DNA of 64,000 nucleotides. Source: Chloroflexus aggregans DSM 9485 (GTDB lineage: Bacteria > Chloroflexota > Chloroflexia > Chloroflexales > Chloroflexaceae). Below the pieces are notes generated by a model, which was given only the letters and a program-made list of their open reading frames with translations, was not told the origin of the DNA and searched no databases. Made by a program: the position numbers and the translations under genes. The first letter of the stretch is position 1. Every line of letters starts with the position of its first letter. Of this stretch, positions 1 to 41,253 are shown piece by piece. The DNA lies in the NCBI RefSeq assembly GCF_000021945.1, contig NC_011831.1, positions 1,313,353-1,377,352 of the forward strand, written 5' to 3'.

Positions 1-176
1 GGCTCCGCTTCGGCGATGCCCTGTCCCTCGAAGCAACTGCCCAACAACTCGGTTGCACTGTCTCCGCTGTCAAAGCGCTCCAACACCGGGCGATGACCCT
101 TGCCTGCAAACTGATGCGTGAGCAGCAAGAGATCATTCCCAACCCACGGCGGACGTATACCCCGCCGATGGCGTGA
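1..176 (+). CDS. RNA polymerase sigma-70 family factor, C-terminal region-4 fragment (5' end lies outside the window)
   Basis: Frame 3 translates to ...LSLEATAQQLGCTVSAVKALQHRAMTLACKLMREQ...PPMA*, a sigma-70 region-4 HTH-like pattern. Stop at about 174-176. Confidence 0.4.
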   Translation, partial: LRFGDALSLEATAQQLGCTVSAVKALQHRAMTLACKLMREQQEIIPNPRRTYTPPMA

Positions 177-191
177 ATGGGGGAAAGAGGT

Positions 192-228
192 GTTCAAAAG
201 GGATCAGCGATGCTGATCCCTTTTGAAC
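192..228. terminator. Perfect 17-bp inverted repeat (gttcaaaagggatcagc-gat-gctgatcccttttgaac); likely bidirectional terminator between the convergent sigma and csx1 genes
   Basis: Perfect stem read directly from the sequence. It lies in the 68-bp gap between the two convergent gene ends. Confidence 0.45.
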
Positions 229-243
229 ATGGACGAACACACA

Positions 244-1482: not shown

Positions 1483-1490
1483 CGAACACC

Positions 1491-3587: not shown

Positions 3588-3700
3588 CGCGACCTCATTG
3601 GATATGTGCTACGACAGGTCGTGCTTTCAGATCGTTAATCATCAGTTGAAAGATTTGGTGACACGCATCGAGAATATCCTTCGCGGTGCTCATATCCCAT

Positions 3701-3925
3701 TCATTCTCTGCCGGGATACATGGCAATATTTCGCCTTCTCTGTAATTCTTCCAACAACTGCATCAGCTCAGATGGACAGTTCAAAATCGGGATACGGAGC
3801 ACTTCTAACAAGGCGCCCCAATTCCTTCTTTGGGCCTGTTGATGAGTGACTTTAGAATAGTAGGTTCGTAATACCTCTTCAGTAGCGCGGAGCATAAACA
3901 TATGAATAACACTTTGCAGCTTCAT
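3701..3925 (-). CDS. Small hypothetical protein (74 aa) in an AT-rich insert between the RAMP paralogs
   Basis: ORF in the same frame as 3935..4330, separated from it only by a TAA and 3 codons. Local AT-rich composition differs from the flanking cas genes. Confidence 0.3.
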   Translation of the reverse strand: MKLQSVIHMFMLRATEEVLRTYYSKVTHQQAQRRNWGALLEVLRIPILNCPSELMQLLEELQRRRNIAMYPGRE

Positions 3926-3934
3926 AAACGTCGG

Positions 3935-4330
3935 TTAACTCCAGCATCTCCGTATCGACATCAAAAAACATATTGGATCACGGAGCAGATCGATGATCTG
4001 ATCCGTGCAATCCCGCAACGTTACGAACACTCTCCGCCTGTACCCCTCTTCAGACAAAACGTTACGCACATTTCTAGCGATCTGTCGTATCTTTCTGGCA
4101 TCCCTACCTAAAACATCGGAATGATGATCCTTCTCTATGCAATTCAACACCTCGTCTAAGTCAGCACTCAAAACACGCGCAGCTTGAGATAATTCGAGTT
4201 TCTCCAGGTCTTGACGGAGCATTCTTTGTCGATCAACAATGCCAGGTCGATTGGTACGAGAGGGGTAAATCGGTGTTCGGGCAGTGACATTACCCAGAAA
4301 CTCCAGGTTCAAACCAATATACATGAACAT
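3935..4330 (-). CDS. Small hypothetical protein (131 aa), predicted helical; possible Cas11-like small subunit or unrelated accessory
   Basis: Its size and position between RAMP genes resemble Cas11 (Csm2/Cmr5). No diagnostic motif was recognised, and it lies in AT-rich inserted DNA. Confidence 0.3.
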   Translation of the reverse strand: MFMYIGLNLEFLGNVTARTPIYPSRTNRPGIVDRQRMLRQDLEKLELSQAARVLSADLDEVLNCIEKDHHSDVLGRDARKIRQIARNVRNVLSEEGYRRRVFVTLRDCTDQIIDLLRDPICFLMSIRRCWS

Positions 4331-4379
4331 GACCTCCCACAGCGACAGCTCATTGGTTTTCTCTATGGAACTGCCTCAC

Positions 4380-8853: not shown

Positions 8854-8856
8854 CGG

Positions 8857-11193
8857 CTATCTCCTCTCTTCAGCCTTCTGGCGGGCAGGCGCAGCGATCC
8901 GGGCAGCCAGCATCTGCAAGCCGATCTGCAAGCCGATGCGCCATGCCAGCGGATTGTGGTCCAACTTGTGTGACTTGAGTTTATCTACCAACGCATCCAG
9001 CAGCTTATCGATCACATCCATACCGCGCTTCCCGTCAGCCGTGAAGAAATTCGGTTTGTCGCGGCCGGACAACGATTTGCCGAGGAGGTTCTCTGCATTC
9101 CCTGACCGTTGTAAATCCTGCTTGATGGCATCAACCGAGGTGTGCTGAGAAACATGTAACAGCCGAGCAATCGTCTCAAAACGCCCATCGTTGAAACAAG
9201 CGAAGGATGTTGCTTCCGCTTCGAGCTTTTCCTCCCACTCGCGGGTGAAAGCAAGCACGGCCACAAACGGGGGCGACTGCTCGGCAGACGCCATCTGCAA
9301 CGGGGTGAGATCGAGCATCGGACTGGTGATCCCTTGAAGTTGACGGTAGACCGGATGATTGAACGCAACACGACCGAAGCCCTCATTGCGGCGGAGACCG
9401 ATACCCTGCGCCTCTACCTCCCCCAGACGCTGTCGCAGGTCATCCAACGGGATTCCCTTGAAACTCAGGCGTACACTGGAACCGGCAACGATGGCAATAT
9501 CTCGCGCGCGCGGCAACCCTAACGTGGCATTGAAGGAGTCCACCGTCCGCACCGCTGAAAACGCCAGCGCCTCGCCATTCTGGTTGCAATCAATCGAGAC
9601 TGCTGCGCCATTCGGCAACTGCAACTCGCGCTTTAGCCATGCGGTATCGAACCCACGCCAGAAACGTCCCCACGGATCGACGATAATCGCATCACTCAAC
9701 AATAGCATCGTGACATGCTCCGTTGACGTGAGGCGTCCTGTGAGTGACTGCAAGCTGAACAGCGGTTCGTCGATTTTCTGAAACACGGCGCTGACTTTAC
9801 CATAGCCGCGTTGGGTGGCTTTACCGAGGTGCAGTTCGTTTACCGCTCCATTTGGTTGAAGATTGGCCATGCTCTGTAAAAGGTCCCAGACCGTTTGATC
9901 GGTACAGGTTACCTCACCGACAAAATACTGACCCGGCTCTAAAGCTACGTATCCGTACAGATCGCCGGTACGCACCCGCCCACTGTCAGGATCGATGCGA
10001 ATGTGCATTTCCACCATTGTGGACGGTTTGTGCTTGGAACGCGGCATACCACTGACTAATGAAATAAACCCTTCCAAGCTTGTTAACTGGCCGGTACGCT
10101 TACATCGCGGGCATTCCTCTGGCGCACTCGGATCGAACAGACTCCAGACTCCATGGCCTTTATCTCGGCTAGGATCGGCATGCCCCGGATGCAATTCACA
10201 CGTTAGCAGATCGCGCGGGGCAATTATAGTGGGATAACCATTAGCTTTCTGAAACACTTCTACCGGGGTCAACATCGAGAAGCGCACTGTATCACGGTAG
10301 AACAGATCGACAAAATCTTGGTATACCGACCCCTGAAGTTGCTTTCCCAGATGCTTCGCCGCACGCCACGCCAGCGCGCCGCGCAGCACACTGCCGGGAA
10401 TGATGTCGAGCGTCTCGTACTGATTACCGGCTTCGACCCGACGAGCGATCAGTAACGGTTCGTCAAGCCGCATGAGAACGCGCAAGCGATAGGTATGATG
10501 GTTGGGATAGGGGGGCAACTGAAGCGGACTGATGTTGATTGCGCCGGCAGGCAAGGCGGGTTCTGCGACTTGTTCATCTCTTAACCGCTTGGCCAATCGA
10601 TCCAGAATCGCGGTTTCCTGCGCTCGATCAACAAGATGAATCTCGCACTCACCATAGCCACGCCGCTTCCCGGCGCCAAGATTACGCAGCATACGTGCAG
10701 CGGCGACGAGCCATTCAGCCTCGCGCTGCGCATCGGCATCATCATTCTGGCACTCGGCCACGAAGCGGAAGTGCAAGCTGCCATCACCCTCCTCACGGGT
10801 GAACAGTTTATTTTTCTCGGCCCGACGTGTGCGAGGATTAACCCGCACGCGCGTTGTGATCTGCGCCGCCGTTTCGCCCGCACTCCACACGTCCGATGGC
10901 ACGAGCGGTGTCATCATACCCGCAGGTCGTGCAGAAGAGATACGCCAACGCTTTTGGCGGGCGGGCGAACCGAAGATCGTATCCACCACATGGTGATTGG
11001 ACGCGAACACTTGCAGTGTCAGCAGGTTGGTTAAACTTTCGCGCAGGAGACCGGCCAGCACCGTGCCGCGGATTACCGGTACGCCGTCGGCATCGCGGAG
11101 TAGGGCCGAGTCAACTTGCAGACCGAGACCATAACCGGCGCCGATGTGGTAATCGCTCTTGAACTCGATCTCGAATTCGAGACGGATACTCAT
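8857..11193 (-). CDS. RAMP fusion protein (778 aa): N-terminal Csm5/Cmr6-like Cas7 domain, second Cas5 (Csm4/Cmr3)-like domain, helical C-terminal extension
   Basis: Domain 1 has DYHIGAGYG, VIRGTVLAGLLRE, IFGSP and LGAGKRRGYGE. Domain 2 has IIPGSVLRGALAWR, VRFSMLTP (resembling the Csm4 'fS.a.P' motif), an ECPRCKR zinc motif and GIGLRRNEGFGRV. The last roughly 150 aa are predicted helical and could be a fused Cas11. The gene is adjacent to cas10. Confidence 0.5.
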   Translation of the reverse strand: MSIRLEFEIEFKSDYHIGAGYGLGLQVDSALLRDADGVPVIRGTVLAGLLRESLTNLLTLQVFASNHHVVDTIFGSPARQKRWRISSARPAGMMTPLVPSDVWSAGETAAQITTRVRVNPRTRRAEKNKLFTREEGDGSLHFRFVAECQNDDADAQREAEWLVAAARMLRNLGAGKRRGYGECEIHLVDRAQETAILDRLAKRLRDEQVAEPALPAGAINISPLQLPPYPNHHTYRLRVLMRLDEPLLIARRVEAGNQYETLDIIPGSVLRGALAWRAAKHLGKQLQGSVYQDFVDLFYRDTVRFSMLTPVEVFQKANGYPTIIAPRDLLTCELHPGHADPSRDKGHGVWSLFDPSAPEECPRCKRTGQLTSLEGFISLVSGMPRSKHKPSTMVEMHIRIDPDSGRVRTGDLYGYVALEPGQYFVGEVTCTDQTVWDLLQSMANLQPNGAVNELHLGKATQRGYGKVSAVFQKIDEPLFSLQSLTGRLTSTEHVTMLLLSDAIIVDPWGRFWRGFDTAWLKRELQLPNGAAVSIDCNQNGEALAFSAVRTVDSFNATLGLPRARDIAIVAGSSVRLSFKGIPLDDLRQRLGEVEAQGIGLRRNEGFGRVAFNHPVYRQLQGITSPMLDLTPLQMASAEQSPPFVAVLAFTREWEEKLEAEATSFACFNDGRFETIARLLHVSQHTSVDAIKQDLQRSGNAENLLGKSLSGRDKPNFFTADGKRGMDVIDKLLDALVDKLKSHKLDHNPLAWRIGLQIGLQMLAARIAAPARQKAEERR

Positions 11194-12818
11194 GCCTCGT
11201 CCTCCTGCGGTTCATAATCGTCGGGGTTATGACTCAACTCCTGCGCAAACTCCCAAACTTCCAGCAGATCGAGCATGCCGTGAACGACCACATCGCGGTT
11301 ATCGCGCGTGATACTGCGCCAATAGTGAGCGCCATTCCCGTCGTTCTTGGGCTTGCCCAGCACCGCAAGCGCATCGACTACCGCCGAACGTGAAGCTGCA
11401 CTCAATCGCTCCAAAATCCATTCGAGCCGATGCTGCGTCCACCGTTCTAAGTTTTGGGTACGCTGCTGCACAGGAATATCCGTCTGCACCTCGGCAAAAC
11501 AACGGCGCAATTCGGCCAGACGCTTCCGGGGAAGATCTTTCAGGGCATAGCGCTGCGCCAGCAGATGCTTGAGGTCGATCCCGCGCAGCAAGGCGTCTTT
11601 CGAGAGATCGTGCTCTGCGACCCAATACGGACGTAACGAGCGCCGGATGACCTGATCACCGTCTGCCTCGGCCATACCCGCCAACCGATTGCCCAAAATG
11701 ACCTCGAAATTGACCGCCGATAGATGCCCGTTCGTCTTGGCAGCCAGCAATTTGCTCTGGCGCTTGGCATCCTCCAGCAAAGCTTCGGCCCGGCGATGGG
11801 CCAGTGCATACGGATAGGTACGCTTGCAAATCACCACTGCTGCGGCAATCGTCGGGCGAGGCACATTGTGCAGACCTATCTTATTTACCAGCATCTGCAT
11901 ACGCTCTTCCCATTCGAGGCAGAAGCGACGGGCAATATCGAGCGCATACGACGCCGGCACAAGTGCAAAGAGATCATCACCACCGAGAATGAGCGGGAGC
12001 ATCGGCATCATCGTCGCCTGTGCCGGAACTTGCTTGCGGAACTCAATCATCGGAACGGCCAGACTCTCACTCAGCACCGTTGATAGACCTTGCGAAAGGT
12101 TCTGGAGCTGCCCCTGGTCACAATTGCCGAATAATTGACCCATACCGTTGCCGTCGGCCACCAAATAGGCTACGTAGTTTCGTTTACTCAGGTCAAAAAC
12201 GGCAATGGCATCGGCGTCTTCGGGCCAATCGGGTTCAATGTGGGCAGGAATTGCCGCTTTCTTAGCATAAGGATCGTACACTCCACCAAGGAATTCGCGC
12301 AGACCACGATCACGCTCAGTTGCTTTGATCTGACAGGTCGCACACAGATACCTGTGGCGGGAATCGTTCCTTCCCGCCAGCCGATCACGCCGTTCCGCCA
12401 ACCCCACGCCACACGACTCGCAGAATGCGACATACGGCATATGCACTTCGGCTACTACTCCCTGCCGATGACTCTTCGCCCAGCGCAACTTTGTACCGGC
12501 TTCATCATTGGCCGTGCGGAAATCACTGTTCATCGCTACAGGCTCAGCAACTGTCAGACTGCCACCCAACGCCAGCCGGTAGCGTTCAGCCAGATCGGCG
12601 CCGAAAGCAACCGCGTCATTTCGATCGTCAAAGATCACCCGAAAACTACCACCATCGTTGACCACAACCTGACCGTTGTACTGCTTCGCCAAGGTATCTT
12701 CGACGCTACGGCAGAAGCGAGTCAGCAACTGACTCGCCCCAACCACTTCGCGCAAGCGCGAAGAGCGAAAGATGAAATCCTGAATCTTATCGGCCTCGGC
12801 GGCCAAGAGGTAGGGCAT
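11190..12818 (-). CDS. cas10: Cas10 (minimal, no HD domain; cyclase GGDD intact)
   Basis: The N-terminal ADKIQDFIF motif is a palm-domain hallmark. CESCGVGLAE...RYLCATCQ is a treble-clef zinc finger. ILGGDDLFALV is the GGDD cyclase motif. At 542 aa it is too short to carry an HD nuclease domain. Confidence 0.75.
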   Translation of the reverse strand: MPYLLAAEADKIQDFIFRSSRLREVVGASQLLTRFCRSVEDTLAKQYNGQVVVNDGGSFRVIFDDRNDAVAFGADLAERYRLALGGSLTVAEPVAMNSDFRTANDEAGTKLRWAKSHRQGVVAEVHMPYVAFCESCGVGLAERRDRLAGRNDSRHRYLCATCQIKATERDRGLREFLGGVYDPYAKKAAIPAHIEPDWPEDADAIAVFDLSKRNYVAYLVADGNGMGQLFGNCDQGQLQNLSQGLSTVLSESLAVPMIEFRKQVPAQATMMPMLPLILGGDDLFALVPASYALDIARRFCLEWEERMQMLVNKIGLHNVPRPTIAAAVVICKRTYPYALAHRRAEALLEDAKRQSKLLAAKTNGHLSAVNFEVILGNRLAGMAEADGDQVIRRSLRPYWVAEHDLSKDALLRGIDLKHLLAQRYALKDLPRKRLAELRRCFAEVQTDIPVQQRTQNLERWTQHRLEWILERLSAASRSAVVDALAVLGKPKNDGNGAHYWRSITRDNRDVVVHGMLDLLEVWEFAQELSHNPDDYEPQEDEA

Positions 12819-12836
12819 AGGTGGACCTCCAATTAT

Positions 12837-14723: not shown

Positions 14724-15590
14724 CTACACTCCCTCAATAAACATAGCAAAATGATCGCGGATGAAGCGATAGTCGAGTGGTTCGCTGTTCGAAAGTTCCC
14801 ATGCGTTGCGGCACTCGGCCAGGATGGCGGTCTTGTGCGTGTTGACCGTGCTGAGCGAGATCGATAGACGCTCGGCGACCTGGTCGGGGCGAAAGCCCTG
14901 CGCAAAGGCACGAAGTACGTCGCGTTCGCGCGGACTGAGCCGGTCCCAGACTTGACGGCAGCGTGGATCGTCAACCGCAGTGAGTTGGCGTAGGTAAGAA
15001 GGAAGCGATGTCTGTTGGGTGAGTACCCGTAGTCCGGGGAAAAAAGCACCCCACGGCTTGAGAGGAACCGCGATGAGACGCACACCATCGGCGGGCGAGA
15101 CGTGCATCTGCGCACCGTCTTTGACTCGTGCTAGCGTCGCTTCAGGGGTGTGCATGTGCCATAAGCGGTCACTGAAATCGCCGTAGATGGAGATAACTGA
15201 GGTTACCAGTAAGGCCAGCATTCGCCGTCCACCGCTGATGCAGAGGTGCAACCGGCGGCCTTCGGTTTTGAGATTGGTGATAAGGTCGCGGATGGTGGCG
15301 AAGGCGGCATCGGCATCGGCTTCGGTACGGATGTCGTCGAGTTCAATGCCGTTGCGGGTAATCGGTACGTGTCGGAGCCGACAGCGTTGACCGGCGTAGT
15401 AGTCGTCAACGAATTCGGCTTGCAGCCTTTGCCAGGCTTGTCGGATGCGCGGATTGGCCAATGAGAGGTGCAAGATATAGACTTCGTTGATGGCTTCACC
15501 TTGGGCGAGCAGGGCGTCGAGGGCGAAGGTGATCACTTGGGGCTGACCACCAAGGGTTGCGATCAGTGTTGTCGAGTGAGATGTTGTCAT
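14724..15590 (-). CDS. Transcriptional regulator: N-terminal CARF/Csa3-like Rossmann domain plus C-terminal LuxR/GerE HTH
   Basis: Has TLIATLGGQPQVITFALDALLAQGEAINEVYILHLS (Csa3/CARF-like) and C-terminal LSPRERDVLRAFAQGF...LSISLSTVNTHKTAIL (LuxR HTH). The ORF track extends upstream to 15935, but that part reads through the promoter. The likely start is MTTSHS at about 15590, with an alternative at about 15629. Confidence 0.5.
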   Translation of the reverse strand: MTTSHSTTLIATLGGQPQVITFALDALLAQGEAINEVYILHLSLANPRIRQAWQRLQAEFVDDYYAGQRCRLRHVPITRNGIELDDIRTEADADAAFATIRDLITNLKTEGRRLHLCISGGRRMLALLVTSVISIYGDFSDRLWHMHTPEATLARVKDGAQMHVSPADGVRLIAVPLKPWGAFFPGLRVLTQQTSLPSYLRQLTAVDDPRCRQVWDRLSPRERDVLRAFAQGFRPDQVAERLSISLSTVNTHKTAILAECRNAWELSNSEPLDYRFIRDHFAMFIEGV

Positions 15591-15613
15591 AAGACTGTTT
15601 GTCAAGCGTTGTT

Positions 15614-15628
15614 TGCTATATGATAGCA
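15614..15628. promoter_or_regulatory. Inverted repeat TGCTAT-ATG-ATAGCA in the divergent promoter region; candidate operator
   Basis: Perfect 6-bp arms with a 3-bp spacer lie between the divergently transcribed CARF-HTH regulator and the P-loop/Csx3-like gene. Confidence 0.3.
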
Positions 15629-15671
15629 TGTTCACAATGTTTATCACAATATTCTGATCTCGTTTGAAGGA

Positions 15672-16829
15672 GTGAACGTTGTGGCCTCGTCGTCTACCTT
15701 TCCTGCTGTTATGATCGGTGGTCCTCCGCACAGCGGTAAGTCGGTGTTGGTGTATGCGTTGTCGCGTGCGCTGCGTGCAGCAAATACGACCCACTATGTG
15801 TTGCGGGCTTGTCCTGATGGCGAGGGCGATTGGAGCCATGAGACGCCGGAGGAGCGGGTACGGTTGTTGCGACAGAAGGGCCGGTTTAGCAGTGAATTTG
15901 TCGAGCGAGTACGCTGTGCTATTGAGCGTCGCCACTTGCCGTTGTTAGTTGATGTGGGTGGTAAGCCGACGCTTGAGCAAGAGCAGATCTTGCGCGCATG
16001 CACCCATGCGGTGTTGCTGGCAGCTACGCCAGAAGGTTTGGCCGAATGGCGCGAACGAGCCGAGCGGTGTGGGTTGATCATTATCGCCGAATTGCAGTCG
16101 GTATTGCATGACGAAGATCGGGTTGATGAAAAAACACCGGTGTTGCGCGGCGTCATTAGTAAGCTGGAGCGGCAACATCCGCCTCATGGTTTGATGGTGC
16201 AAACATTAAGCGAACGGTTACGGCATCTGTTCGCGTTCTCGCCGGAAGAGCTGAAGGAACGGCTGTTTCCAAGAGCGCCTACGGAGTTTATTGTCGATCT
16301 TGATCGACTTGCTCGCTCTGCCGGGACTACACATTGGCAGCCGTCTGATCTTTCCCGCATCTTACGTGAGATCCCGCTCACAACGTGTTCAATCTACGAG
16401 CGCGGTCCGAATTGGTTGTATGCAGCGCTGGCTTTGCACATTGCACCGGAACCGGTGTTTCTGTTTAACCCGCTCTTAGGTTGGGTTCGTCCGCCGTCAG
16501 TAGTGCCCGGCGAACAGCCATCAGACTTGCTGCAATGGAAACTGCAAACCACACCCACCTTTACGTGGATCGAAGCCAATCCTACCCAAGCCTACCTCGA
16601 CTATGACGAGATGCAGCAGTTGGTTGCACCGGCTCTCGATCCGCAGCGCGGTGTCGTGCTCAGTGGAAAGCTACCGCACTGGTTGTTGATCGGTCTTGCC
16701 CTCGCCTATCGCCAGCATCCGTGGATCGCAGTAGTGCAAGCTCAACAGTACGACAACGGTGTGGTGGTGTGGAGTCGCGATCCGCAGTACCCAATCGGGT
16801 CACTGGTGCCGCTCTCGTCTTTCCCTTAA
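15672..16829 (+). CDS. P-loop NTPase fused to two Csx3/Crn3-like (cyclic-oligoadenylate ring-nuclease-like) repeats
   Basis: N-terminal Walker A MIGGPPHSGKSVL. Two C-terminal segments (GPNWLYAALALHIAPEPVFLFNPLLGWV and GKLPHWLLIGLALAYRQHPWIAVVQAQQYDNGVVVW) resemble the Csx3 core recalled as 'LP.WL.aALAlh....vAVy.prlg.vvv'. This is recalled from memory and not profile-verified. Confidence 0.4.
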   Translation: MNVVASSSTFPAVMIGGPPHSGKSVLVYALSRALRAANTTHYVLRACPDGEGDWSHETPEERVRLLRQKGRFSSEFVERVRCAIERRHLPLLVDVGGKPTLEQEQILRACTHAVLLAATPEGLAEWRERAERCGLIIIAELQSVLHDEDRVDEKTPVLRGVISKLERQHPPHGLMVQTLSERLRHLFAFSPEELKERLFPRAPTEFIVDLDRLARSAGTTHWQPSDLSRILREIPLTTCSIYERGPNWLYAALALHIAPEPVFLFNPLLGWVRPPSVVPGEQPSDLLQWKLQTTPTFTWIEANPTQAYLDYDEMQQLVAPALDPQRGVVLSGKLPHWLLIGLALAYRQHPWIAVVQAQQYDNGVVVWSRDPQYPIGSLVPLSSFP

Positions 16830-20906: not shown

Positions 20907-23381
20907 TCACGTACCGGCGGGAGCCGGCGAGGGTTGACCGCGGTTGTTGGTATGAGATCCGTTCTGGTTATTGGCCGGTGTCGGCATCCGGCTCAAGGCA
21001 ATCCGCAGCACCTCATCCATCGATGAGACCGGGATCAGGTTCAACTCACGGCGGACTTTTTCAGGTAGCTCGCTGATATCCTTCGCATTCTCTTTGGGTA
21101 AGATGAAGGTGCGAATCCCGGCGCGATGTGCTGCCAGTGTCTTCTCTTTCAGACCACCAATCGGCAACACCTTACCGCGCAGCGTAACCTCGCCGGTCAT
21201 GGCTACATCGCGGCGCACCGGTGTACCGGTGAGCGCACTGATCAGCGCCGTCGTCAGCGTAATCCCCGCCGAGGGATCATCCTTCGGTACCGCACCTTCG
21301 GGAATGTGAATGTGAATATTCGTCTCCTCAAAGGTATTGGGATCGATACCAAAATCGGCAGCCCGCGAGCGCACGTAGCTGACCGCCGTTTGCGCACTCT
21401 CCTTCATCACCTCACCAAGCTGACCGGTCAGTTGCAACTGACCTTTGCCCTTAAACGGCAACACCTCGATACTGAGAATATCGCCGCCGGCACTCGTCCA
21501 CGCTACGCCGGTTGCTACACCAACCTCGTCTTGCTCTTCGGCGATCCCGTATGTGTAGCGCTCCGGGCCAAGGTACTTGACCACGGCAGCTTCATCGATC
21601 ACAAACTTCGGCGGTAGTTCGCCGTTCGCTTCCGTCTGCTCGGCGACTTGGCGAGCCACTTTGCGGCACAAGCTGGCGATCTCACGTTCAAGACCGCGCA
21701 CACCGGCTTCGCGGGTATACTCGCGGATCAGCTTCAGAATCGCGCCCTCGGTAAACTCGATCTGATCTTCTGTCAACCCATGGAACTCACGCTGCTTGGG
21801 AATGAGGAAACCGCGGGCAATTTCCAACTTCTCGTCCTCGGTGTAACCGCCGATCTCGATGATCTCCATACGGTCGCGCAACGGTAACGGGATCGGATCG
21901 AGCTGATTAGCCGTCGCGATAAAGATCACCTTGCTCAGATCGAACGGAATTTCGAGATAGTGATCGCTGAAGGCGTTGTTTTGCTCTGGATCGAGCACCT
22001 CAAGCAGCGCCGACGTCGGATCACCGCGAAAATCCAACCCGATCTTATCCACTTCGTCGAGGATATAGACCGGACTCTTCGACTTAGCATTCTTCATCGC
22101 CTGAATGATGCGACCGGGCATAGCACCGATGTAGGTGCGACGGTGCCCACGAATTTCAGCTTCATCCCGTACACCACCCAGACTGGTGCGCACAAACTTG
22201 CGCCCCAAGGCGCGCGCAATACTGCGACCGAGGCTTGTCTTGCCGACACCGGGTGGGCCAACGAAGCAGAGAATGGGAGAACGCATCTTATCACCGGCCA
22301 GTTTGCGCACGGCTAGATATTCGAGGATACGCTCTTTTACCTTTTCCAACCCATAGTGATCGGCGTCAAGCACTTTCTGAGCCTCGGTAATGCTGATCTC
22401 GGGCAATTCCTCATCAGCCCATGGCAACGAGAGGATCCAATCGAGATAGGTGCGAATGACCCCCGACTCGGGGTTGTTCATCCCCTGCTGGGCCAACCGC
22501 TTCAACTCATGCAACGCCTGATTTTTCACGTACTCCGGCGCATCGAGTTCGTGAATCTTGCGCCGTAGTTCGTCGATCGGATCATCACCCTCTTCATCTT
22601 CACCTAGCTCGCGGCGAATAATCCGCAACTGCTCGCGCAAAAAGTACTCACGTTGGCTCTGATCGAGCACCTCTTTGGTATCTTGCTGAATCTTGACCCG
22701 CAACTTGAGGAGTTCAAGCTGTCGCGCTAACACAAGATAGACCTTGCGCAAGCGCTCAACCGGGTCGAGTGTGTTAAGAACCTCGAGCCGATCTTTAAAA
22801 TCAAACGCCGGTCCCCATGTCACAATGTCGGCTAAGTGGCCGGGACGGTCAATGCGATGGACGAACTGGACGGCCTCTTGCGGCACTTCACCAAGATGCT
22901 CGACAAACTCATCAACTTGCTGCTTGACCGTCTCCATCAAGGCTTCTACTTCCAGACCACTCACCGGCGGGTCAGTGTATGGCCGGCAGCGCACCCGGTA
23001 GAAGGGTGTGATCTGGATCGCCTCAATAATCTGCGCCCGACTCTGGCCTTCCAGAATCACGCGGGCAGTACCGTCGTTCAGTTTGGCAAACTCTTGCAAC
23101 TGAGCAATCACACCAATTGGTGGCAGATTCTGTGGTTGATTGCTCTTGTAGCCTTCAAGCTGGTGCTCGCGGACGAAGATCAACAAGACATCGCGATCTT
23201 CTTCCCACGCGCGCTCCATCGCACGGTAGGATTTCCCTTGCGGCACCTGCAATGGTATCGTCATGTGCGGCATGATGACCATCTCGCCGAGCACCACCAT
23301 TGGCAACCGACGCTCAGGCGCTTCTTGCGGTTCATCATGCTCCTCAGGCAGATCATCAAACAATGACATTGGTTCGTTCAT
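20907..23381 (-). CDS. lon: ATP-dependent Lon protease
   Basis: Lon N-domain, AAA+ Walker A GPPGVGKTS, and protease-domain PKDDPSAGIT (catalytic Ser). Confidence 0.9.
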   Translation of the reverse strand: MNEPMSLFDDLPEEHDEPQEAPERRLPMVVLGEMVIMPHMTIPLQVPQGKSYRAMERAWEEDRDVLLIFVREHQLEGYKSNQPQNLPPIGVIAQLQEFAKLNDGTARVILEGQSRAQIIEAIQITPFYRVRCRPYTDPPVSGLEVEALMETVKQQVDEFVEHLGEVPQEAVQFVHRIDRPGHLADIVTWGPAFDFKDRLEVLNTLDPVERLRKVYLVLARQLELLKLRVKIQQDTKEVLDQSQREYFLREQLRIIRRELGEDEEGDDPIDELRRKIHELDAPEYVKNQALHELKRLAQQGMNNPESGVIRTYLDWILSLPWADEELPEISITEAQKVLDADHYGLEKVKERILEYLAVRKLAGDKMRSPILCFVGPPGVGKTSLGRSIARALGRKFVRTSLGGVRDEAEIRGHRRTYIGAMPGRIIQAMKNAKSKSPVYILDEVDKIGLDFRGDPTSALLEVLDPEQNNAFSDHYLEIPFDLSKVIFIATANQLDPIPLPLRDRMEIIEIGGYTEDEKLEIARGFLIPKQREFHGLTEDQIEFTEGAILKLIREYTREAGVRGLEREIASLCRKVARQVAEQTEANGELPPKFVIDEAAVVKYLGPERYTYGIAEEQDEVGVATGVAWTSAGGDILSIEVLPFKGKGQLQLTGQLGEVMKESAQTAVSYVRSRAADFGIDPNTFEETNIHIHIPEGAVPKDDPSAGITLTTALISALTGTPVRRDVAMTGEVTLRGKVLPIGGLKEKTLAAHRAGIRTFILPKENAKDISELPEKVRRELNLIPVSSMDEVLRIALSRMPTPANNQNGSHTNNRGQPSPAPAGT

Positions 23382-25284: not shown

Positions 25285-25785
25285 TTAGGCCAGGCGTCCC
25301 GTATCGCTCCGTTCGAGCACGCGCACCATTCCGGTTAACACTCCTTCGAGCAGTTCGAGCAAACGATCGGCATCGGCTGACGACAAATGACCGAGTGCTG
25401 CATAAATTTGCTCACGCCGGGCTTGCTTGATTGCGGCAATCAATGCCAACCCCCGCGGGGTCACCTGTACCATTACCTGCCGACGATCCCGCTCGTGCCG
25501 GGTGCGCTCGACCAGTTGCTTATCGAGCAGTCGATCAACGACGCCGGTGAGTGCGGCTGCCGACTGTTGCGTCGCTTCGGCCAGGTCCGACATCTTGCAT
25601 TCACCGTTGGTTTGGGCAAGATGAAGAAGGGTATAGAACTGAGTCAGGGTCAAGTTGAAGCGTTCGTCGTCGAGCAACTGCACAAACTGGCGCTGCGCCA
25701 GCCAACTGATGCGCAGGATCATCTGCTCGATAGCATCGAGTGTTGTATGTTCGGGTAGTGTTTTGGGCTGTTCTGCTTCAGCCAT
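25285..25785 (-). CDS. MarR-family transcriptional regulator
   Basis: Winged-helix pattern LTLTQFYTLLHLAQ...MSDLAEATQQSAAALTGVVDRLLDKQLVER. The real start is MAEAEQ at about 25785. The upstream part of the ORF track is translated repeat DNA. Confidence 0.7.
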   Translation of the reverse strand: MAEAEQPKTLPEHTTLDAIEQMILRISWLAQRQFVQLLDDERFNLTLTQFYTLLHLAQTNGECKMSDLAEATQQSAAALTGVVDRLLDKQLVERTRHERDRRQVMVQVTPRGLALIAAIKQARREQIYAALGHLSSADADRLLELLEGVLTGMVRVLERSDTGRLA

Positions 25786-25877
25786 GCGATCCGTTAATCC
25801 TAGCCCATGTAGATATTCAACAATATTAAGTATATCAGAGGCAAGTAATCTTGTAAAGTCATGAGACGCAACGACGC

Positions 25878-25946
25878 TCACGCAAAGGACGTTAACGCAA
25901 AGACCGCAGAGGGCGCAAAGGCGCAAAGAGGTTAACGCAAAGGCGC
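25878..25946. repeat. Copy A of a dispersed repeat with ACGCAAAG(G/A) motifs at about 11-bp periodicity
   Basis: About 85% identical to 51243..51310. It lies in the 5' region of marR. Confidence 0.5.
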
Positions 25947-25951
25947 TATGG

Positions 25952-26080
25952 GCACCACCCGTAGGGGCACGGCGTGCCGTGCCCTCACTGACGCACAGCA
26001 CGCCACCCGTAGGGGCACGGCGTGCCGTGCCCTCACTGACGCACAGCACGCCACCCGTAGGGGCACGGCACGCTGCGTGG
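25952..26080. repeat. 48-bp tandem repeat (2.6 copies), each unit containing a 9-bp GC hairpin (gggcacggc-gt-gccgtgccc)
   Basis: Direct tandem read from the sequence, with no spacers, so it is not CRISPR-like. It lies between the histidine-kinase gene end and the marR promoter. Confidence 0.6.
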
Positions 26081-29159: not shown

Positions 29160-29960
29160 TTGTATTACTGTTGTATTACGCACGAAAGGTTGTTGAACGT
29201 GGAACTCTTCGATCTCGCCTTAATCTTTACCGCTGCATTGCTGGCCGGTGCATTGAACGCGATTGCCGGCGGCGGTAGCTTCTTTTCTTTTCCAGCCCTT
29301 TTAGTCGCCGGCGTGTCACCAATCGTCGCCAATGCGACAAATGCGTTGGCACTCTGGCCGGGCACGCTGGCGAGTGTCGGTGCCTACCGGCGCGAGCTGA
29401 GTGGTCAACGGAACGACATTTGGCTCTTCAGCGGGTTGAGCCTGATCGGTGGACTGCTCGGTGCGCTGTTGTTACTCGCTACCGATGAACAACGTTTTAC
29501 CGCCTTGATCCCGTACCTGTTACTCTTCGCCACCCTGATCTTTACCTTTAGCCCACAGATCACCACCGTAGCCCAACGGCTGGTCGGTCATGGCAGTCGT
29601 CAGCAACGCCTGTTGGTTACGGTTGTCTATTTTGCCATTGCCATCTACGGTGGTTTTTTTGGTGCCGGACTGGGGATTCTCACCCTCGCGGCTTTGGCCT
29701 TGCTCGGTCACGACAACATTCATCGGATGAATGCGCTGAAAACTTTGCAGGCGGCGCTCGTTAACGGGATTGCGGTGGCGACCTTCGTTGCCACCGGCTT
29801 GATCGCGTGGCTACCGGCCCTGATCATGACGATCGGCGCGATCGCCGGCGGCTATGGCGGTGCGGCGATTGCCCGCCGCATAGACGCCCGCCGGGTTCGC
29901 ACCGTGGTTGTGTGGATCAGCATCGGTTTGACGGTCTGGTTTTTTGTGCGTGCATCCTGA
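29160..29960 (+). CDS. TauE/SafE-family (DUF81) anion exporter membrane protein
   Basis: Multiple TM helices with duplicated GxGGG-like motifs (AGGGSFFSFP and GAGLGILT). The likely start is GTG at about 29198. Confidence 0.7.
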   Translation: MYYCCITHERLLNVELFDLALIFTAALLAGALNAIAGGGSFFSFPALLVAGVSPIVANATNALALWPGTLASVGAYRRELSGQRNDIWLFSGLSLIGGLLGALLLLATDEQRFTALIPYLLLFATLIFTFSPQITTVAQRLVGHGSRQQRLLVTVVYFAIAIYGGFFGAGLGILTLAALALLGHDNIHRMNALKTLQAALVNGIAVATFVATGLIAWLPALIMTIGAIAGGYGGAAIARRIDARRVRTVVVWISIGLTVWFFVRAS

Positions 29961-30075
29961 TCGCCATCGGTACGGTCGGATACTGAGTGGGTAGCGGTGC
30001 GCTCCCGCTGCCGACGGCGCCGCACCGCATCCCCGGCGGATCGCCCGGACGTGATCGGAGGTCACGCTACCGGTA
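29912..30075. repeat. Left copy of a 164-bp direct repeat flanking a 13-kb island (includes the last roughly 16 codons of the TauE gene)
   Basis: About 96% identical to 43107..43270. The mismatches are clustered in one 13-bp patch. Confidence 0.7.
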
Positions 30076-30105
30076 CGGTCATACGCACCGCGACAGCGGG
30101 CCAGC

Positions 30106-31318: not shown

Positions 31319-32683
31319 ATGAAAACGACAAAGAAATTTTTCGGTATATTCCCCAAAATATTATTCTTTCCAGTTCTGTTTGTTATTATGGCGTTGCCTC
31401 AATTGCTTTCCAAATCACCTTCGCCATTTTTCAGATCTATTAAGCAGCTTTTGGAATCACAATCTATTTTCACGATATTACTCATCGTTTTTGGAATACT
31501 ATTACTGATAGTACTGATAGCTGTAGTTGCTGTTCTGACAGATGATGAGTGGAAAGAAAACATGAAAAGAAAAGTTGACACTACCGAAGCAGTTAAACGC
31601 GAGCGAGGGGGAAACGGAATCTATACAGACCCGATACCGTTCATCTGGATATTTTCTGTCTTAACTTATGTCTATGTAGAGACAGGTAAAGAATGTGCTA
31701 TTGTGGACGGAGAGCGCATTATTGAAACGAAACAATGGATAACCAAATCTTTCTTCCACGATGCAGTTATCCGGTATGTTTTACTTGAGCCACCACCTCT
31801 AATTATGACTATCGAAAATGTTCGCACGCAAGATGATTTGTACCTCACTGCCGATATCTCTGTTACATACAGAGTTCGAGATCCACTTGCTATTATCAAG
31901 AAAGCTGACCCTCTGAAAATTCTACAAGAGCATGTTAAATCACAATGTACTAATTTAATAGGGCGACTAGACTATTACACTATCGCGGATAAAAAAGCCA
32001 AATATGAAAACGAGATATGTGCAGCTATCCAGCGAGAAAGCATATTACCACTTTTTGAGATTACCAGTGTTCATCTTGAGATGAAATTAGCGGTTGACCC
32101 GCGAAACGTTGAAAAGATTGAAGAACTGAAGAGACAGCAAAAAGAGAAGGATCTTCTGGTTGAAGATAGACAGAAAGAGCGTGATCATGCCCGTGAGATA
32201 GATAAAGCGAAAATCGGGGCAGGTTTAACCATTATTAAAGAGACGGCTGAAATTGCAAAAGGAAGATCGGAGTCCACCAAAGAATACATAGATTCTCTAG
32301 GTCCTAGGGCTATATTATCTATGATAGGAACTCCTTATCATAACTTAGAATCGGCTCCAAATCTACCTATGTTGACCGAAGCAACAGAAAGGTCGAGATA
32401 TGAACGTGAAAAGCCTGAACTCGATAATCTGCAAGAAAACGGTGTAATCAAAAACTATGAATCTCGATGGAGTAAAGATGGAAATTTCTGTGGCGTGGTG
32501 ATTGAGGTGGATGATGGACAAATTCATATTTTGTCCCCAAGCTATCCAGATATTGCCCCGACTATTCAATTCATTTCTAGATCAGGTCAAACTTATGAAT
32601 GGCCTATTGAAAAATGGAATGCTAATATGACTATCGTGCATGTTATCACAATTGCACTCAGTAAAATAAAACTTCTTCAATGA
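31319..32683 (+). CDS. SPFH/band-7 (stomatin/prohibitin/flotillin-like) membrane protein with a long C-terminal extension
   Basis: Two N-terminal TM helices. The SPFH core is TQDDLYLTADISVTYRVRDPLAIIKKADPLKILQEHVKSQCTNLIGRLDYY. AT-rich codon usage. Confidence 0.55.
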   Translation: MKTTKKFFGIFPKILFFPVLFVIMALPQLLSKSPSPFFRSIKQLLESQSIFTILLIVFGILLLIVLIAVVAVLTDDEWKENMKRKVDTTEAVKRERGGNGIYTDPIPFIWIFSVLTYVYVETGKECAIVDGERIIETKQWITKSFFHDAVIRYVLLEPPPLIMTIENVRTQDDLYLTADISVTYRVRDPLAIIKKADPLKILQEHVKSQCTNLIGRLDYYTIADKKAKYENEICAAIQRESILPLFEITSVHLEMKLAVDPRNVEKIEELKRQQKEKDLLVEDRQKERDHAREIDKAKIGAGLTIIKETAEIAKGRSESTKEYIDSLGPRAILSMIGTPYHNLESAPNLPMLTEATERSRYEREKPELDNLQENGVIKNYESRWSKDGNFCGVVIEVDDGQIHILSPSYPDIAPTIQFISRSGQTYEWPIEKWNANMTIVHVITIALSKIKLLQ

Positions 32684-32692
32684 GAGTTATTT

Positions 32693-33232
32693 ATGAATAA
32701 TCCTATTGATATAATGATCTTGATCGTCGTAGGATTGGCAACTTTTATAGGCTTTTTCAAATCACCAAGCTCTATTGTGATCGAAATGATATTACTTTAT
32801 GTAGCCGTGGTTCTAACCTTTCAGTATTTGGTGGGAATTAGTGAAATCATCTCAGGTATATTATCAGTAAACGAACGGGTAATATATATTCTAGGTACAG
32901 CGCTCATATTGGGGATCTATTATGGATTGATAAAGACTTACAACCAAATATATAAGCCAAAGCCCAAGAATGAATCAGGGAATCGCGTGTGGGTTTCTCG
33001 GATAATTAGCGGGAGCCTAGCACTGATTCACATTAGCTTTTTGCTAAGTGCGTTGTTTACAATGATTTATCCACTGGCCTTCGAATGTAGAGAAAGTCTG
33101 ACAGACATACCTTATGAACTATGCATTGCAGCAGATATACTTGAACACAGTGAAATCATGAACAGTAATGCGACAATCGAAATGCTTGACGTATATAATG
33201 CGATAATCCAATTTTGGATTCCACCGAGGTAA
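32693..33232 (+). CDS. Small integral membrane protein (about 4 TM)
   Basis: Hydrophobic segments are present. It follows the SPFH gene after a 9-bp gap. Confidence 0.45.
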   Translation: MNNPIDIMILIVVGLATFIGFFKSPSSIVIEMILLYVAVVLTFQYLVGISEIISGILSVNERVIYILGTALILGIYYGLIKTYNQIYKPKPKNESGNRVWVSRIISGSLALIHISFLLSALFTMIYPLAFECRESLTDIPYELCIAADILEHSEIMNSNATIEMLDVYNAIIQFWIPPR

Positions 33233-33245
33233 TTGGAGGGATAAC

Positions 33246-36038: not shown

Positions 36039-36638
36039 GTGAGGTTTCAAATGATATCTGGACGAGTCAACAGCACACGAAACAATGCATCAAGATCGGT
36101 TCGGTCAACGAACATCAAGTCACGCTTTGGTCCATTAAGAGTAAGCACACCATCAAGTTCAACAAGGATCTCTACTCCAAGAATACCGCGAGTTTCCAGC
36201 GCGAGCAAGAAAAAAGCAACGAAATTTGCTAAAACAATGAAAGCAGGACGTACATTTCAGAAGCGGGTTAATAAAGAATTGATGAAAAGGCACGATAAAG
36301 TTTACTCTGAGGTGTATGTACAGGGTAAAAAATCACACAATGCTAGAATTGATCACCTTGTGGATAGTAAGAAACTACAGCCGTATTCCACCAAGAACTC
36401 AAGGTGGCACAAAGTACAAGCGACGACATGGAAAAAATATGTACGTGAGGCCGCCAAATACCCAGACCGGACTATTCTAACCAACAAGCCAGGGTATACC
36501 CATTTGAAAGGACGCAAGGTAGGTAAAAATCCTGTGTTAGTAATGCCGAAAAGGTACTTAAAAAAAGATACCCAAGCGCGTCTGCAAGAAATAAAAACTT
36601 ACGCTAGTAAAAGACGGGTTCGCATAGAATTACAATAG
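36039..36638 (+). CDS. Highly basic (Lys/Arg/Ser-rich) hypothetical protein; possible nucleic-acid-binding or toxin-like component
   Basis: Extreme K/R content. It is immediately downstream of the ATPase, and the probable true start is ATG at about 36051. Confidence 0.35.
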   Translation: MRFQMISGRVNSTRNNASRSVRSTNIKSRFGPLRVSTPSSSTRISTPRIPRVSSASKKKATKFAKTMKAGRTFQKRVNKELMKRHDKVYSEVYVQGKKSHNARIDHLVDSKKLQPYSTKNSRWHKVQATTWKKYVREAAKYPDRTILTNKPGYTHLKGRKVGKNPVLVMPKRYLKKDTQARLQEIKTYASKRRVRIELQ

Positions 36639-36647
36639 GAGGAAAAA

Positions 36648-37058
36648 ATGGACATCAACATTAAGGAAACTCTTACATCTTTGAAAATAGACTTCATTGA
36701 GTTAGAAAATGATGTTTATGGTCTTAGTATAGCTTCCACCGATGAAAGTAGTCGTAGTTTTCCAGTAGTACTATTTCAATGGACAGCTGGAGATGAGCAA
36801 GAATACATACGTTTGATAATCGCTCCTTTTATAGAGCGCCCAAATGAAGGTTTTGCTTTTGACCTGTTTGAACGGGTTTTAGCTATCAATGAACAATTAC
36901 CTAGGGCTAAATTCTTATTAGACAGTGATGGCGATTTGGGATTAGCATTGGATATAGATATTGAAGAATGGCGTTCGGAGAATTTAGCACGTGCGCTGGA
37001 CGTGTTGGGGTCATTTGCTGATTATTGTTACGAAGAATTAGAGTCTTTTGGCAAGTAA
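36648..37058 (+). CDS. Acidic small protein, YbjN/T3SS-chaperone-like; possible immunity or partner of the basic protein
   Basis: D/E-rich with a predicted alpha/beta pattern. It lies 9 bp after the basic-protein gene. Confidence 0.3.
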   Translation: MDINIKETLTSLKIDFIELENDVYGLSIASTDESSRSFPVVLFQWTAGDEQEYIRLIIAPFIERPNEGFAFDLFERVLAINEQLPRAKFLLDSDGDLGLALDIDIEEWRSENLARALDVLGSFADYCYEELESFGK

Positions 37059-40369: not shown

Positions 40370-41253
40370 ATGAGTCATAGCGGACAGCCATTGGCAGAGG
40401 TCTTCGGTCACCTGGTCACCGATCAAACAGATACGGCGAAACGGTATCGTTCTCTTCGTCTCTGTCCCTTCAACAACAAGGTGCCGAATTGCACAAAGGA
40501 CAAAGCAAAGAATCCCCTTGGCGTGTGCAGCATCTATCATGAGAACGCGCCTGTCATTACGCGCCTGTCATTACGTGCCCCATCCGATTTCGTCAGGACT
40601 GGATCATTGCTGACCATGCCGCAGCTTTCTTTTTTGAGGAAGGAACACGGTGGACCTCTCTGACTGAAGTGCGTTTACATGATGCTTATGGCAAGTCTGC
40701 TGGAAACATTGATGTGGTTCTCGTTGCCTATGATGATAAAGGGCGGGTTATTGATTTTGGTGCTCTTGAGATCCAGGCTGTTTATATCTCCGGCAACGTC
40801 CGTGAACCATTCGAGTATTACATGGGCGATCCGCAAAACAGGGCTTCCATGGATTGGTCCGCTGAGCCGAATTACCCTCGTCCTGATTATCTCTCATCTT
40901 CTCGTAAAAGGCTCGTTCCACAACTCGTTTATAAGGGCGGAATCTTGCATAGCTGGAAAAAGAAGATTGCTGTGGCACTGAACAAGAGCTTCTTTGCTAC
41001 GCTACCCACTCTCGAACAAGTCTCAAAGAATGAGGCAGATATTGCCTGGCTCATCTACGATTTGGAGCTGCGTGAAGGGCGATACTATCTGACGAAGGTG
41101 GACGAGGTTTTTACTGAATTTGAACCCGCGCTGCTTTCTATTACAACACCATTGCCTGGAAGAGTGGAGGATTTCATCAAACTGCTTCAGGAAAAGCTCG
41201 ACGAGCAATTGGAAACTCCTCCGACAAACCAAACCATCGAGAGGCCGTTTTGA
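40370..41253 (+). pseudogene. Type II restriction endonuclease with an N-terminal Cys4 metal-binding motif (NotI-like architecture), disrupted by a 14-bp tandem duplication
   Basis: A Cys4 cluster (CPFNNKVPNC...GVCS...ITCP once repaired). gcgcctgtcattac is duplicated at about 40547-40574, shifting the frame; removing one copy yields a continuous 291-aa ORF (...ITCPIRFRQDWIIADHAAAFFFEEGTRWTSLTEVRLHDAYGK...). A PD-(D/E)xK-like IDVVLV...ALEIQAVY segment lies downstream. Confidence 0.4.

Follow-up and report, generated by a model that had tools for sequence, protein, structure and literature searches.

In the Synechocystis sp. PCC 6803 CRISPR-Cas system of type III-Dv (CRISPR2; PDB 8S9T-8S9X; Schwartz et al., 2024, PMC11026444; Ding et al., 2022, PMC9676260), five proteins, with one copy of each, form a 332-kDa complex, and three Cas7 aspartates cleave the target RNA. 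The Cas10 of this complex has a large truncation at the place of the HD nuclease of type III-A Cas10, and target RNA leads to synthesis of cyclic oligoadenylate (cOA) and to activation of Csx1 in vitro, which palm mutations abolish. In a survey of 1113 type III loci, an HD domain was found in only 3% of III-D Cas10 proteins, and cyclic tetra-adenylate (cA4) was by far the commonest signal. Here, we analysed a 64-kb stretch of DNA from Chloroflexus aggregans DSM 9485 (the window), in which positions 244-14570 of the minus strand carry a type III-Dv CRISPR-Cas module for interference and signalling. We consider it very probable that this III-Dv module combines a Cas10 that lacks the HD domain with two RNases that most likely respond to one signal, cA4.

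The 542-aa Cas10 opens directly on the palm motif ADKIQDFIF (residues 9-17; 12768-12794), which is followed by a zinc finger composed of CESC (residues 133-136) and CATC (residues 159-162), with the cysteines C133, C136, C159 and C162 (12333-12422), and by palm 2 with ADGNGMG (residues 221-227) and GGDD (residues 279-282; 11973-11984). The Pfam profile Cas10-Cmr2_palm2 matched residues 215-355 (E 2e-15), and the same profile region lies at residues 606-756 of the HD-containing P. furiosus Cmr2; the PADLOC Cas10 profile matched over the full length (E 1e-56). With its stop codon at 12837-12839, the upstream gene ends 18 nt short of the Cas10 ATG, and this gap contains a GGAGG Shine-Dalgarno (SD) sequence; thus an N-terminal extension, or an HD domain hidden by a mis-called start, is impossible. 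A search of 5.8 billion proteins yielded 544 Cas10 relatives, and the 120 listed homologues were 462-576 aa long. When 22 homologues were aligned with this protein (23 sequences, 45-96% identity), all shared the N-terminus M-x-YLLAAEADKIQ, and the four zinc-finger cysteines, ADGNG and LPLILGGDD were invariant. None of the operon proteins matched an HD family in Pfam or NCBIfam, and the lone HD dipeptide of Cas10 (residues 403-404) is an unconserved one in the C-terminal region. A cryptic or separately encoded HD domain was therefore ruled out by the open reading frame (ORF) boundary, the family-wide N-terminus and the zero HD profile matches. The first-pass annotation of this DNA had described a 542-aa Cas10 that begins on the palm motif, carries a zinc finger and GGDD and leaves no space for an HD domain; each motif was located exactly, the upstream stop leaves only 18 nt, and the alignment uncovered no cryptic HD domain and a GGDD region that is invariant rather than degenerate. 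What the first-pass annotation did not recognise is the III-Dv architecture, in which a missing HD domain is the norm and no peculiarity. It also left unmentioned the two divergent Cas7-insertion paralogs, the decayed HEPN gene that separates them, and the lack of an array, cas6 and adaptation genes across the 64 kb. The best solved relative of Cas10 is the Synechocystis III-Dv chain 8s9t_C (profile E 5e-23), whose residue 20, at the N-terminus, pairs with residue 4 of the C. aggregans protein. As judged from the alignment, the cyclase motifs are intact and invariant; cOA synthesis has been demonstrated with the Synechocystis homologue alone and would be predicted here by analogy. An HD-less Cas10 with an intact cyclase is expected in III-Dv and III-D systems and is no anomaly.

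The other subunits place the locus in the same system. Four of the five subunits matched Synechocystis chains A, C, D and E of 8s9t in the PDB, and a Synechocystis III-Dv chain was the top PDB match for three of them; the match of Cas7-2x ranks behind Cas7-11-type proteins. Csx19 and both Cas7-insertion proteins scored above the NCBIfam cut-offs, and the III-Dv gene order is common to 50 related loci. These came from a pattern scan with one genome per species that gave 53 loci, 50 of which have a Cas10 relative at 35-85% identity; the set does not include C. aggregans and Roseiflexus castenholzii themselves, and the 50 loci belong mostly to Chloroflexota, the others to Bacillota and further phyla. 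By its gene content, the C. aggregans locus is a type III-Dv interference module and an ordinary member of a known, structurally characterised kind. Like the Synechocystis system, it encodes Cas10, Cas7-Cas5-Cas11, Cas7-2x, Csx19 and Cas7-insertion; the HD-less GGDD Cas10 is of near size (575 aa in Synechocystis), and a DxTHG Csx1 CARF-HEPN protein and a further CARF protein are present in both, with a Csx3 homologue in the same genome in Synechocystis. Unlike in Synechocystis, the second CARF protein is a 577-aa CARF1-HEPN protein encoded just upstream of cas10, whereas SyCsm6 is a CARF7-RelE ring nuclease at the operon end. C. aggregans also differs in having two Cas7-insertion paralogs, a decayed small HEPN gene, a CARF7-LuxR protein and an adjacent AAA-Csx3 fusion, and in having no cas6, adaptation genes or array adjoining the operon. 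Protein identity between the two systems is low, and palm 2 was the only part of Cas10 that phmmer aligned.

Two evolutionary neighbours, type III-D2 (Cas7x3, Cas7-5, Cas10, CorA) and type III-E (Cas7-11), likewise have Cas7 domains in fused form and a Cas7 that carries a large insertion. Type III-E differs in having no Cas10 at all, and the C. aggregans locus has no single-protein effector; III-D2 differs in its triple Cas7 fusion, its lack of Csx19, its CorA effector and its use of SAM-AMP. Because III-D2 is a close evolutionary neighbour of III-Dv and makes SAM-AMP and SAM-AMP2, a Cas10 that makes such a non-cOA messenger has to be weighed here as well. CorA is the effector that marks such systems, and none of the operon proteins matched CorA in Pfam, NCBIfam or PADLOC. 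Furthermore, all sensors at the locus are CARF or Csx3 proteins, which bind cOA, and the catalytic pair that was mutated in III-D2 Cas10 is D347/E348, whereas GGDD is present here, as in the cOA-making Synechocystis enzyme. With no CorA and with GGDD in place, SAM-AMP signalling as in III-D2 was rejected as exceedingly improbable.

The genes of the module are listed in Table 1 in their order on the minus strand. Neighbouring genes of the operon overlap by 4 nt or are separated by gaps of 3-18 nt, with an SD-like sequence for each. Exact protein records were found for Cas10 (ACL23986), the 577-aa protein (ACL23987), Csx1 (ACL23978), one Cas7 paralog (ACL23979) and the Lon protease (ACL23993). 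Past csx1, a perfect inverted repeat forms a terminator-like hairpin that marks where the operon ends; it escaped the terminator scan for lack of the T-run that the scan requires. Promoter and terminator scans of the window gave no more hits than shuffled sequence (12 versus 9.8 and 20 versus 17.8, respectively) and do not inform on the operon boundaries. The next gene beyond csx1 is the end of a sigma-factor-like gene, convergent with it. The single further contig that carries the exact Csx1 sequence stops 86 bp past the end of csx1.

Table 1. Positions, in the window, of the genes and repeats described in the text; order is that along the minus strand.
Order	Feature	Length	Position	Strand	Remark
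1	CARF7 (Cas_NE0113/Csx14-like)-LuxR-type HTH		14724..15629	-	Start uncertain: M103 (15629) or M116 (15590)
2	Csm6-type CARF1-HEPN RNase (predicted)	577 aa	12837..14570	-	Strong SD, GGGAGG
3	Cas10	542 aa	11190..12818	-	Palm 1 from residue 3; from Pfam, PADLOC, alignment and ORF context
4	Cas7-Cas5(Csx10)-Cas11 fusion	778 aa	8857..11193	-	Start overlaps the cas10 stop (ATGA)
5	Cas7-2x, two fused Cas7 (Csx7/Csm3-like) domains	597 aa	7060..8853	-
6	Csx19, III-D-specific subunit	196 aa	6473..7063	-
7	Cas7-insertion paralog A (TIGR03986)	698 aa	4380..6476	-	TIGR03986 E 1e-160; 8s9t_E E 2e-83
8	Decayed small HEPN-motif gene	~270 aa when intact	3588..4379	-	From three-frame translation and intact relatives
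9	Cas7-insertion paralog B (TIGR03986)	698 aa	1491..3587	-	TIGR03986 E 1e-157
10	Csx1-type CARF2-HEPN RNase (predicted)	412 aa	244..1482	-	Start 8 nt past the Cas7-insertion B stop
	Perfect inverted repeat, 3-nt loop	18 nt	191..229		Between the convergent ends of csx1 and the sigma-factor-like gene
	Sigma-factor-like gene, end		1..175	+
	AAA ATPase-Csx3 fusion		15672..16829	+	Divergent from the operon; predicted Crn3-type cA4 ring nuclease
	Lon protease		20907..23381
	ORF with tandem repeat at its 5' end		25285..26049
	Tandem repeat, perfect, 2.4 copies	48 nt	25955..26069
	Direct repeat, 97% identity	168 nt	29912..30079 and 43107..43274		Copies 13 kb apart
	Low-GC island		31319..37058	+
	DNA methyltransferase		41250..42254	+

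To characterise the backbone, the subunits were compared with profiles and with the solved complex. The 778-aa fusion consists of an N-terminal RAMP domain followed by Csx10 at residues 241-619; residues 5-621 aligned with the Cas7-Cas5-Cas11 chain 8s9t_A (phmmer E 8e-20), and the predicted catalytic aspartate D28 pairs with D26 of the Synechocystis subunit. Cas7-2x has two RAMP stretches (Pfam E 2e-44) and matched PADLOC Cas7_IIId over its full length (E 1e-116) and 8s9t_D (E 3.6e-19). Csx19 was identified by NCBIfam TIGR03984 (44.8 bits; cut-off 35) and by PADLOC Csx19 (E 4e-99). The two Cas7-insertion proteins share 39% identity in a pairwise comparison; Cas7-insertion proteins of the locus also matched Cas7-11 profiles and structures. 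Paralog B has a basic N-terminal extension of ~45 aa and does not have the Cys cluster of paralog A (KKCATYDALCPACRVFGW in A, SEEYERLDIASRVFGW in B). Two Cas7-insertion genes, A and then B, were present in at least 15 of 43 related loci (many contigs end early). The paralogs might cap two alternative III-Dv complexes with differing seed or target-recognition properties.

Between the two Cas7-insertion genes lies a decayed gene: it is interrupted by an in-frame stop, has lost an internal segment and reads RNIAMY where intact relatives have RNEAMH, which includes a His-to-Tyr change. A 131-aa ORF (3935-4330) is its N-terminal remnant, and tblastn aligned 3713-4372 at 44% identity with the intact protein of one related locus (L009, 12303-13106). 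Further intact relatives were found in L011 (10808-11614), L015 (18797-19603) and L045 (18857-19663), and the gene is frameshifted in L002 as well. The family has a C-terminal RNEAMH and no CARF domain, and its gene directly follows a Cas7-insertion gene in several III-Dv loci; an intact relative gave a weak Pfam HEPN match (E 0.011), and the family is rare, with 12 clusters among 1.8 billion representatives. A cas6 remnant was considered for the 131-aa ORF and ruled out, as the intact relatives are ~270-aa proteins with HEPN RNxxxH.

We next turn to the two CARF-HEPN proteins. In the 577-aa protein, the CARF domain has motif I (G60/S62) and motif II, DITGAKK (residues 160-166, with DITGAK at 160-165), and the HEPN motif RGEAIH occupies residues 502-507 (13050-13067). 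Among 26 family members, D160, T162, G163 and K165 show no variation, and neither do R502 and H507; G60, S62 and Y185 are also invariant in the family alignment, and K166 is nearly so. The protein had no match in Pfam and matched PADLOC CARF1--CARF_HEPN from end to end (E 7e-226). Its AlphaFold2 model, built with 26 homologues, reached a predicted local distance difference test score (pLDDT) of 89.6 and places R502 and H507 in a helix near the C-terminus. The best fold matches of the model were structures of Thermus thermophilus Csm6 (TtCsm6) in the apo, A2>p-bound and cA4-bound states (E 5e-11, full length), followed by Csm6 of E. italicus (E 1.7e-5), which is activated by cyclic hexa-adenylate (cA6), and then by CARF-only matches to Cam1, Can2 and Crn1. 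TtCsm6 was also the sole relative at the sequence level; E. italicus Csm6 gave no sequence match. The 412-aa protein has DITHG at residues 100-104 (1171-1185) and RNDLMH at residues 375-380 (343-360), and D100, T102, H103 and G104 as well as R375, N376, D377 and H380 are invariant in 24 family members. It scored above the cut-offs of TIGR02221 (102.1 bits; cut-off 76.25) and of TIGR02549 DxTHG (45.4 bits; cut-off 21), and it matched PADLOC CARF2--CARF_HEPN over its full length (E 2e-104). Its AlphaFold2 model (pLDDT 83) was closest, again over the full length, to Marinitoga Csx1-Crn2 with cA4 (E 4.5e-14) and to Csx1 of Sulfolobus islandicus, both of which are cA4 enzymes.

Sequence and models thus indicate that each of the two RNases is a true CARF-HEPN protein whose catalytic motifs are intact, and for each of them the relatives favour cA4. 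The full-length profile matches of Cas10 and of both RNases show that these motif finds are not coincidental. The first-pass annotation had named a Csm6-type protein with DxTGxK and RGEAIH near cas10 and a Csx1-type protein with DxTHG and RNDLMH, and had called them differently built; all four motifs were found at defined positions and are invariant in the families, and the two proteins fall into different PADLOC classes (CARF1 and CARF2) and have high-confidence models with the folds of Csm6 and Csx1, respectively. Its account of the operon ends held in part: the last gene is the Csx1-type gene, and the first is probably not the Csm6-type gene, as it is preceded, at a distance of 153 nt and in the same orientation, by the CARF7-LuxR-HTH gene. 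In the related loci, a Csm6-like gene lies directly upstream of cas10 in 46 of 48 assessable cases, and a Csx1-like gene is found at the operon end in 5 of 43, all relatives from Chloroflexus and Roseiflexus. The CARF1-HEPN protein is therefore the conserved partner of the HD-less Cas10, and Csx1 is a lineage-specific addition in the Chloroflexus/Roseiflexus clade.

The 577-aa protein resembles TtCsm6 (TTHB152; 5FSH, 8JBB, 8JH1), a self-limiting RNase activated by cA4, in combining CARF and HEPN domains and in its G-x-S, D-x-T-x-x-x-K, YVD tyrosine and R-x4-H motifs. It differs in its identity of ~15%, in a length greater by ~115 aa, in a helical extension at its N-terminus and an insertion ahead of the HEPN catalytic helix, and in being partnered with a III-Dv module rather than with the system of TtCsm6. 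We mapped the TtCsm6 residues that have a published role in cA4 handling by a hidden Markov model alignment, with motif I (G58/T59/S60) placed by eye after the first strand. Motif I corresponds to G60/E61/S62; T133/G135/K137 of motif II, in which K137 is essential for cA4 binding, corresponds to T162/A164/K166; and of the two residues of cA4 cleavage, Y161 corresponds to Y185 and N164 to F188. The counterparts of G58/S60, T133/K137 and Y161 are conserved, and N164 is the one position that is not; residue 188 is a nearly invariant Phe in the family. The 412-aa protein, for its part, shares DxTHG, RNxxxH and TIGR02221 with the Csx1 family (Marinitoga Csx1-Crn2, 8Y6Z/8Y7G; S. islandicus Csx1, 6QZT; SyCsx1), all characterised members of which are cA4-activated RNases; SyCsx1 is activated by cA4 and not by cA6. 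Unlike the solved Csx1 proteins, it has no Crn2 fusion and is only 13-17% identical, and it is known from its sequence and model.

The first-pass annotation offered two readings of the RNase pair, dual second-messenger specificities and layered responses. If the RNases sensed different cOA species of one Cas10, with Csx1 responding to cA4 and the Csm6-type protein to cA6, for instance, this would be a naturally occurring type III locus with two signals, and a single viral ring nuclease could not silence both channels. The RNases do belong to different CARF clades, the fold match to the cA6 enzyme of E. italicus is significant though weaker, Cas10 enzymes usually give a range of ring sizes in vitro, and unusual CARF-HEPN specificity exists, as in Csm6-2, which uses cyclic penta-adenylate in III-D loci. 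However, the cA6-type Csm6 proteins of E. italicus and S. thermophilus are not the closest relatives of the 577-aa protein; that is the cA4-specific TtCsm6 (E 5e-11 versus 1.7e-5), whose cA4-contact residues G58/S60, T133/K137 and Y161 are kept in the family. In addition, among the 1113 surveyed loci, Csx1 occurred with other effectors in 31% of its loci, multi-effector loci typically shared cA4, effectors of different signals hardly ever shared a locus, and no cA6-type Csm6 stood beside a cA4 effector. A gene for a Csx3-type ring nuclease, a family characterised as cA4-degrading, is also adjacent, and in related loci it accompanies the Csm6-like gene where no Csx1 was seen. Taken together, these results make dual messengers unlikely and a layered cA4 response the better reading. 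Sequence as such does not specify the messenger, and it is the closest relatives and the setting of the operon that lead us to infer cA4 as the most likely messenger and also as the activator of the 577-aa protein.

The ring-nuclease candidate is encoded by an AAA-Csx3 fusion divergent from the operon. PADLOC AAA-Csx3 matched it over the full length (E 2.5e-205), and Pfam found Cas_csx3 at residues 306-379 (E 7e-17) and AAA_16. The first gene on the minus strand encodes Cas_NE0113 (residues 131-318; Pfam E 3.6e-49) and a GerE-type HTH (residues 332-372; E 1.3e-10), with an NCBIfam match to Csx14 and a weak match to Crn1. The mechanical ORF of this gene reaches 15935 and overlaps the 5' end of AAA-Csx3 by ~260 nt. 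The CARF domain begins only at residue ~124, and relatives align from residue ~104-123 on; the start is therefore probably M103 or M116, which leaves a divergent intergenic region of only 42-81 nt. The protein is predicted from these matches to be a cOA-responsive regulator and possibly a ring nuclease as well. The divergent AAA-Csx3/CARF7-HTH pair was found at 15 related loci, 5 of which have the Csm6-like gene and no Csx1 within 2.6-3.2 kb downstream. If the fusion degrades cA4, its company with a Csm6-like gene without Csx1 suggests that the Csm6-like protein, too, answers to cA4.

The same proteins bear on a division of labour in which one CARF protein, most plausibly the Csm6-type one, mainly degrades cOA as an off-switch and Csx1 is the real effector RNase. 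For the Synechocystis III-Dv 'Csm6', RNase activity was not seen in vitro; this protein broke down cOA and dampened SyCsx1, and the CARF domain of TtCsm6 is a Crn1-type ring nuclease whose motif I and II residues are conserved in the 577-aa protein. However, SyCsm6 is a CARF7-RelE and not a CARF1-HEPN protein, so that the analogy is one of name only, and the family-wide invariance of R502 and H507 argues for a selected RNase activity. Furthermore, most related loci showed no CARF-HEPN protein other than the Csm6-like one, which must therefore be the effector there; the counterpart of N164, which serves cA4 cleavage in TtCsm6, is Phe188; and AAA-Csx3 and CARF7-HTH already provide two dedicated off-switch candidates. 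We thus regard this division of labour as unlikely. The N164A variant of TtCsm6 kept cA4 binding, lost cA4 cleavage and showed prolonged RNase activity; on the basis of F188, we speculate that the 577-aa protein may be a poor self-limiting ring nuclease that leans on separate off-switches.

Several findings weigh against a III-Dv module that signals through cA4. The C-terminal ~160 aa of the 778-aa fusion, the Cas11 part, are present in length and did not align by sequence with 8s9t_A; Csx19 matched no solved PDB structure by sequence; and a pair of Cas7-insertion paralogs is at odds with a model complex of 1:1:1:1:1 stoichiometry. The sequence similarity of the 577-aa protein to TtCsm6 is marginal (profile E 1e-3, CARF region only), and its second-best fold match is the cA6-activated E. 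italicus enzyme. The decayed accessory HEPN gene implies that parts of the locus are under relaxed selection. Finally, no CRISPR array was detected in the 64-kb window by Tandem Repeats Finder, direct-repeat families, a spaced k-mer scan or Rfam CRISPR-DR, and no cas6, cas1 or cas2 was found in it; 39 further ORFs, searched against PADLOC as a pseudo-alignment, gave zero Cas matches.

These last points, and the pseudogene inside the operon, would also fit an orphan, non-functional or decaying remnant of horizontal transfer without a supply of CRISPR RNA (crRNA). In R. castenholzii, Cas10 is 96% and the Csm6-type protein 93% identical, and Cas7-insertion B falls into the same 90% cluster; the 90% cluster of the Lon protease in the window holds only Chloroflexus among its listed named members. 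Sequence identity thus suggests a recent horizontal transfer of the module between Chloroflexus and Roseiflexus. However, each of the other ten genes is intact; they are tightly spaced and have SD sequences, and their catalytic and ligand-binding motifs are invariant. A clear CRISPR array was seen within the fetched flanks of only 2 of the 50 related loci (L046 and L032), so loci of this clade do not as a rule have an array close by, and array, cas6 and adaptation genes do not define the III-Dv effector module itself. Type III modules commonly draw their crRNAs from arrays elsewhere in the genome. We therefore consider a relic quite improbable and retain the III-Dv module with cA4 as its most likely signal.

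In such a module, a crRNA from an array outside the window would guide the five-subunit complex to a foreign transcript. By homology to Synechocystis, Cas10, Cas7-Cas5-Cas11, Cas7-2x, Csx19 and Cas7-insertion would be present in one copy each on the crRNA, and the Cas7 aspartates would cut the bound transcript; binding would also activate the palm pair of Cas10, which, by homology and context, would make cOA, most likely cA4. The cA4 would then bind the CARF domains of both HEPN RNases and lead to non-specific RNA degradation, and AAA-Csx3 and CARF7-HTH would probably remove cA4 and/or regulate transcription. Because there is no HD domain, Cas10 would have no DNase arm, and immunity would hinge on signalling.

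The locus adds a Chloroflexota case to a system already established in Synechocystis by structure, RNA cleavage and cOA signalling, and HD-less Cas10 proteins and multi-effector loci are documented norms. With two RNases, AAA-Csx3 and CARF7-HTH, it has four predicted cOA-binding or cOA-degrading proteins and is a compact case of stacked same-signal effectors and off-switches. Three of its parts are most worth a second look: the CARF1-HEPN 'Csm6', a near-obligatory, operon-internal partner of the HD-less Cas10 that is absent from the model system and biochemically uncharacterised; the recurrent Cas7-insertion pair, which raises a question of complex composition beyond the single solved structure; and the decayed small HEPN gene.

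Elsewhere in the window, a low-GC island (39-46% GC versus ~55% elsewhere) contains, besides two small ORFs, genes for an SPFH/Band-7 protein of 454 aa, a protein of 179 aa and a HerA/FtsK-like ATPase of 930 aa that matched PADLOC mad8 (E 3e-15) and HerA (E 8e-12). The island may have been acquired horizontally as a module of defence or membrane stress. The DNA methyltransferase resembles PD-Lambda-5_B and type II methyltransferases (E 3e-37), and one of the 39 pooled ORFs in the 25-64 kb region gave a strong BrxF-like match (E 9e-91). Two repeats were also observed, a tandem repeat with a perfect 48-nt unit at the 5' end of an ORF and a 168-nt direct repeat (Table 1).

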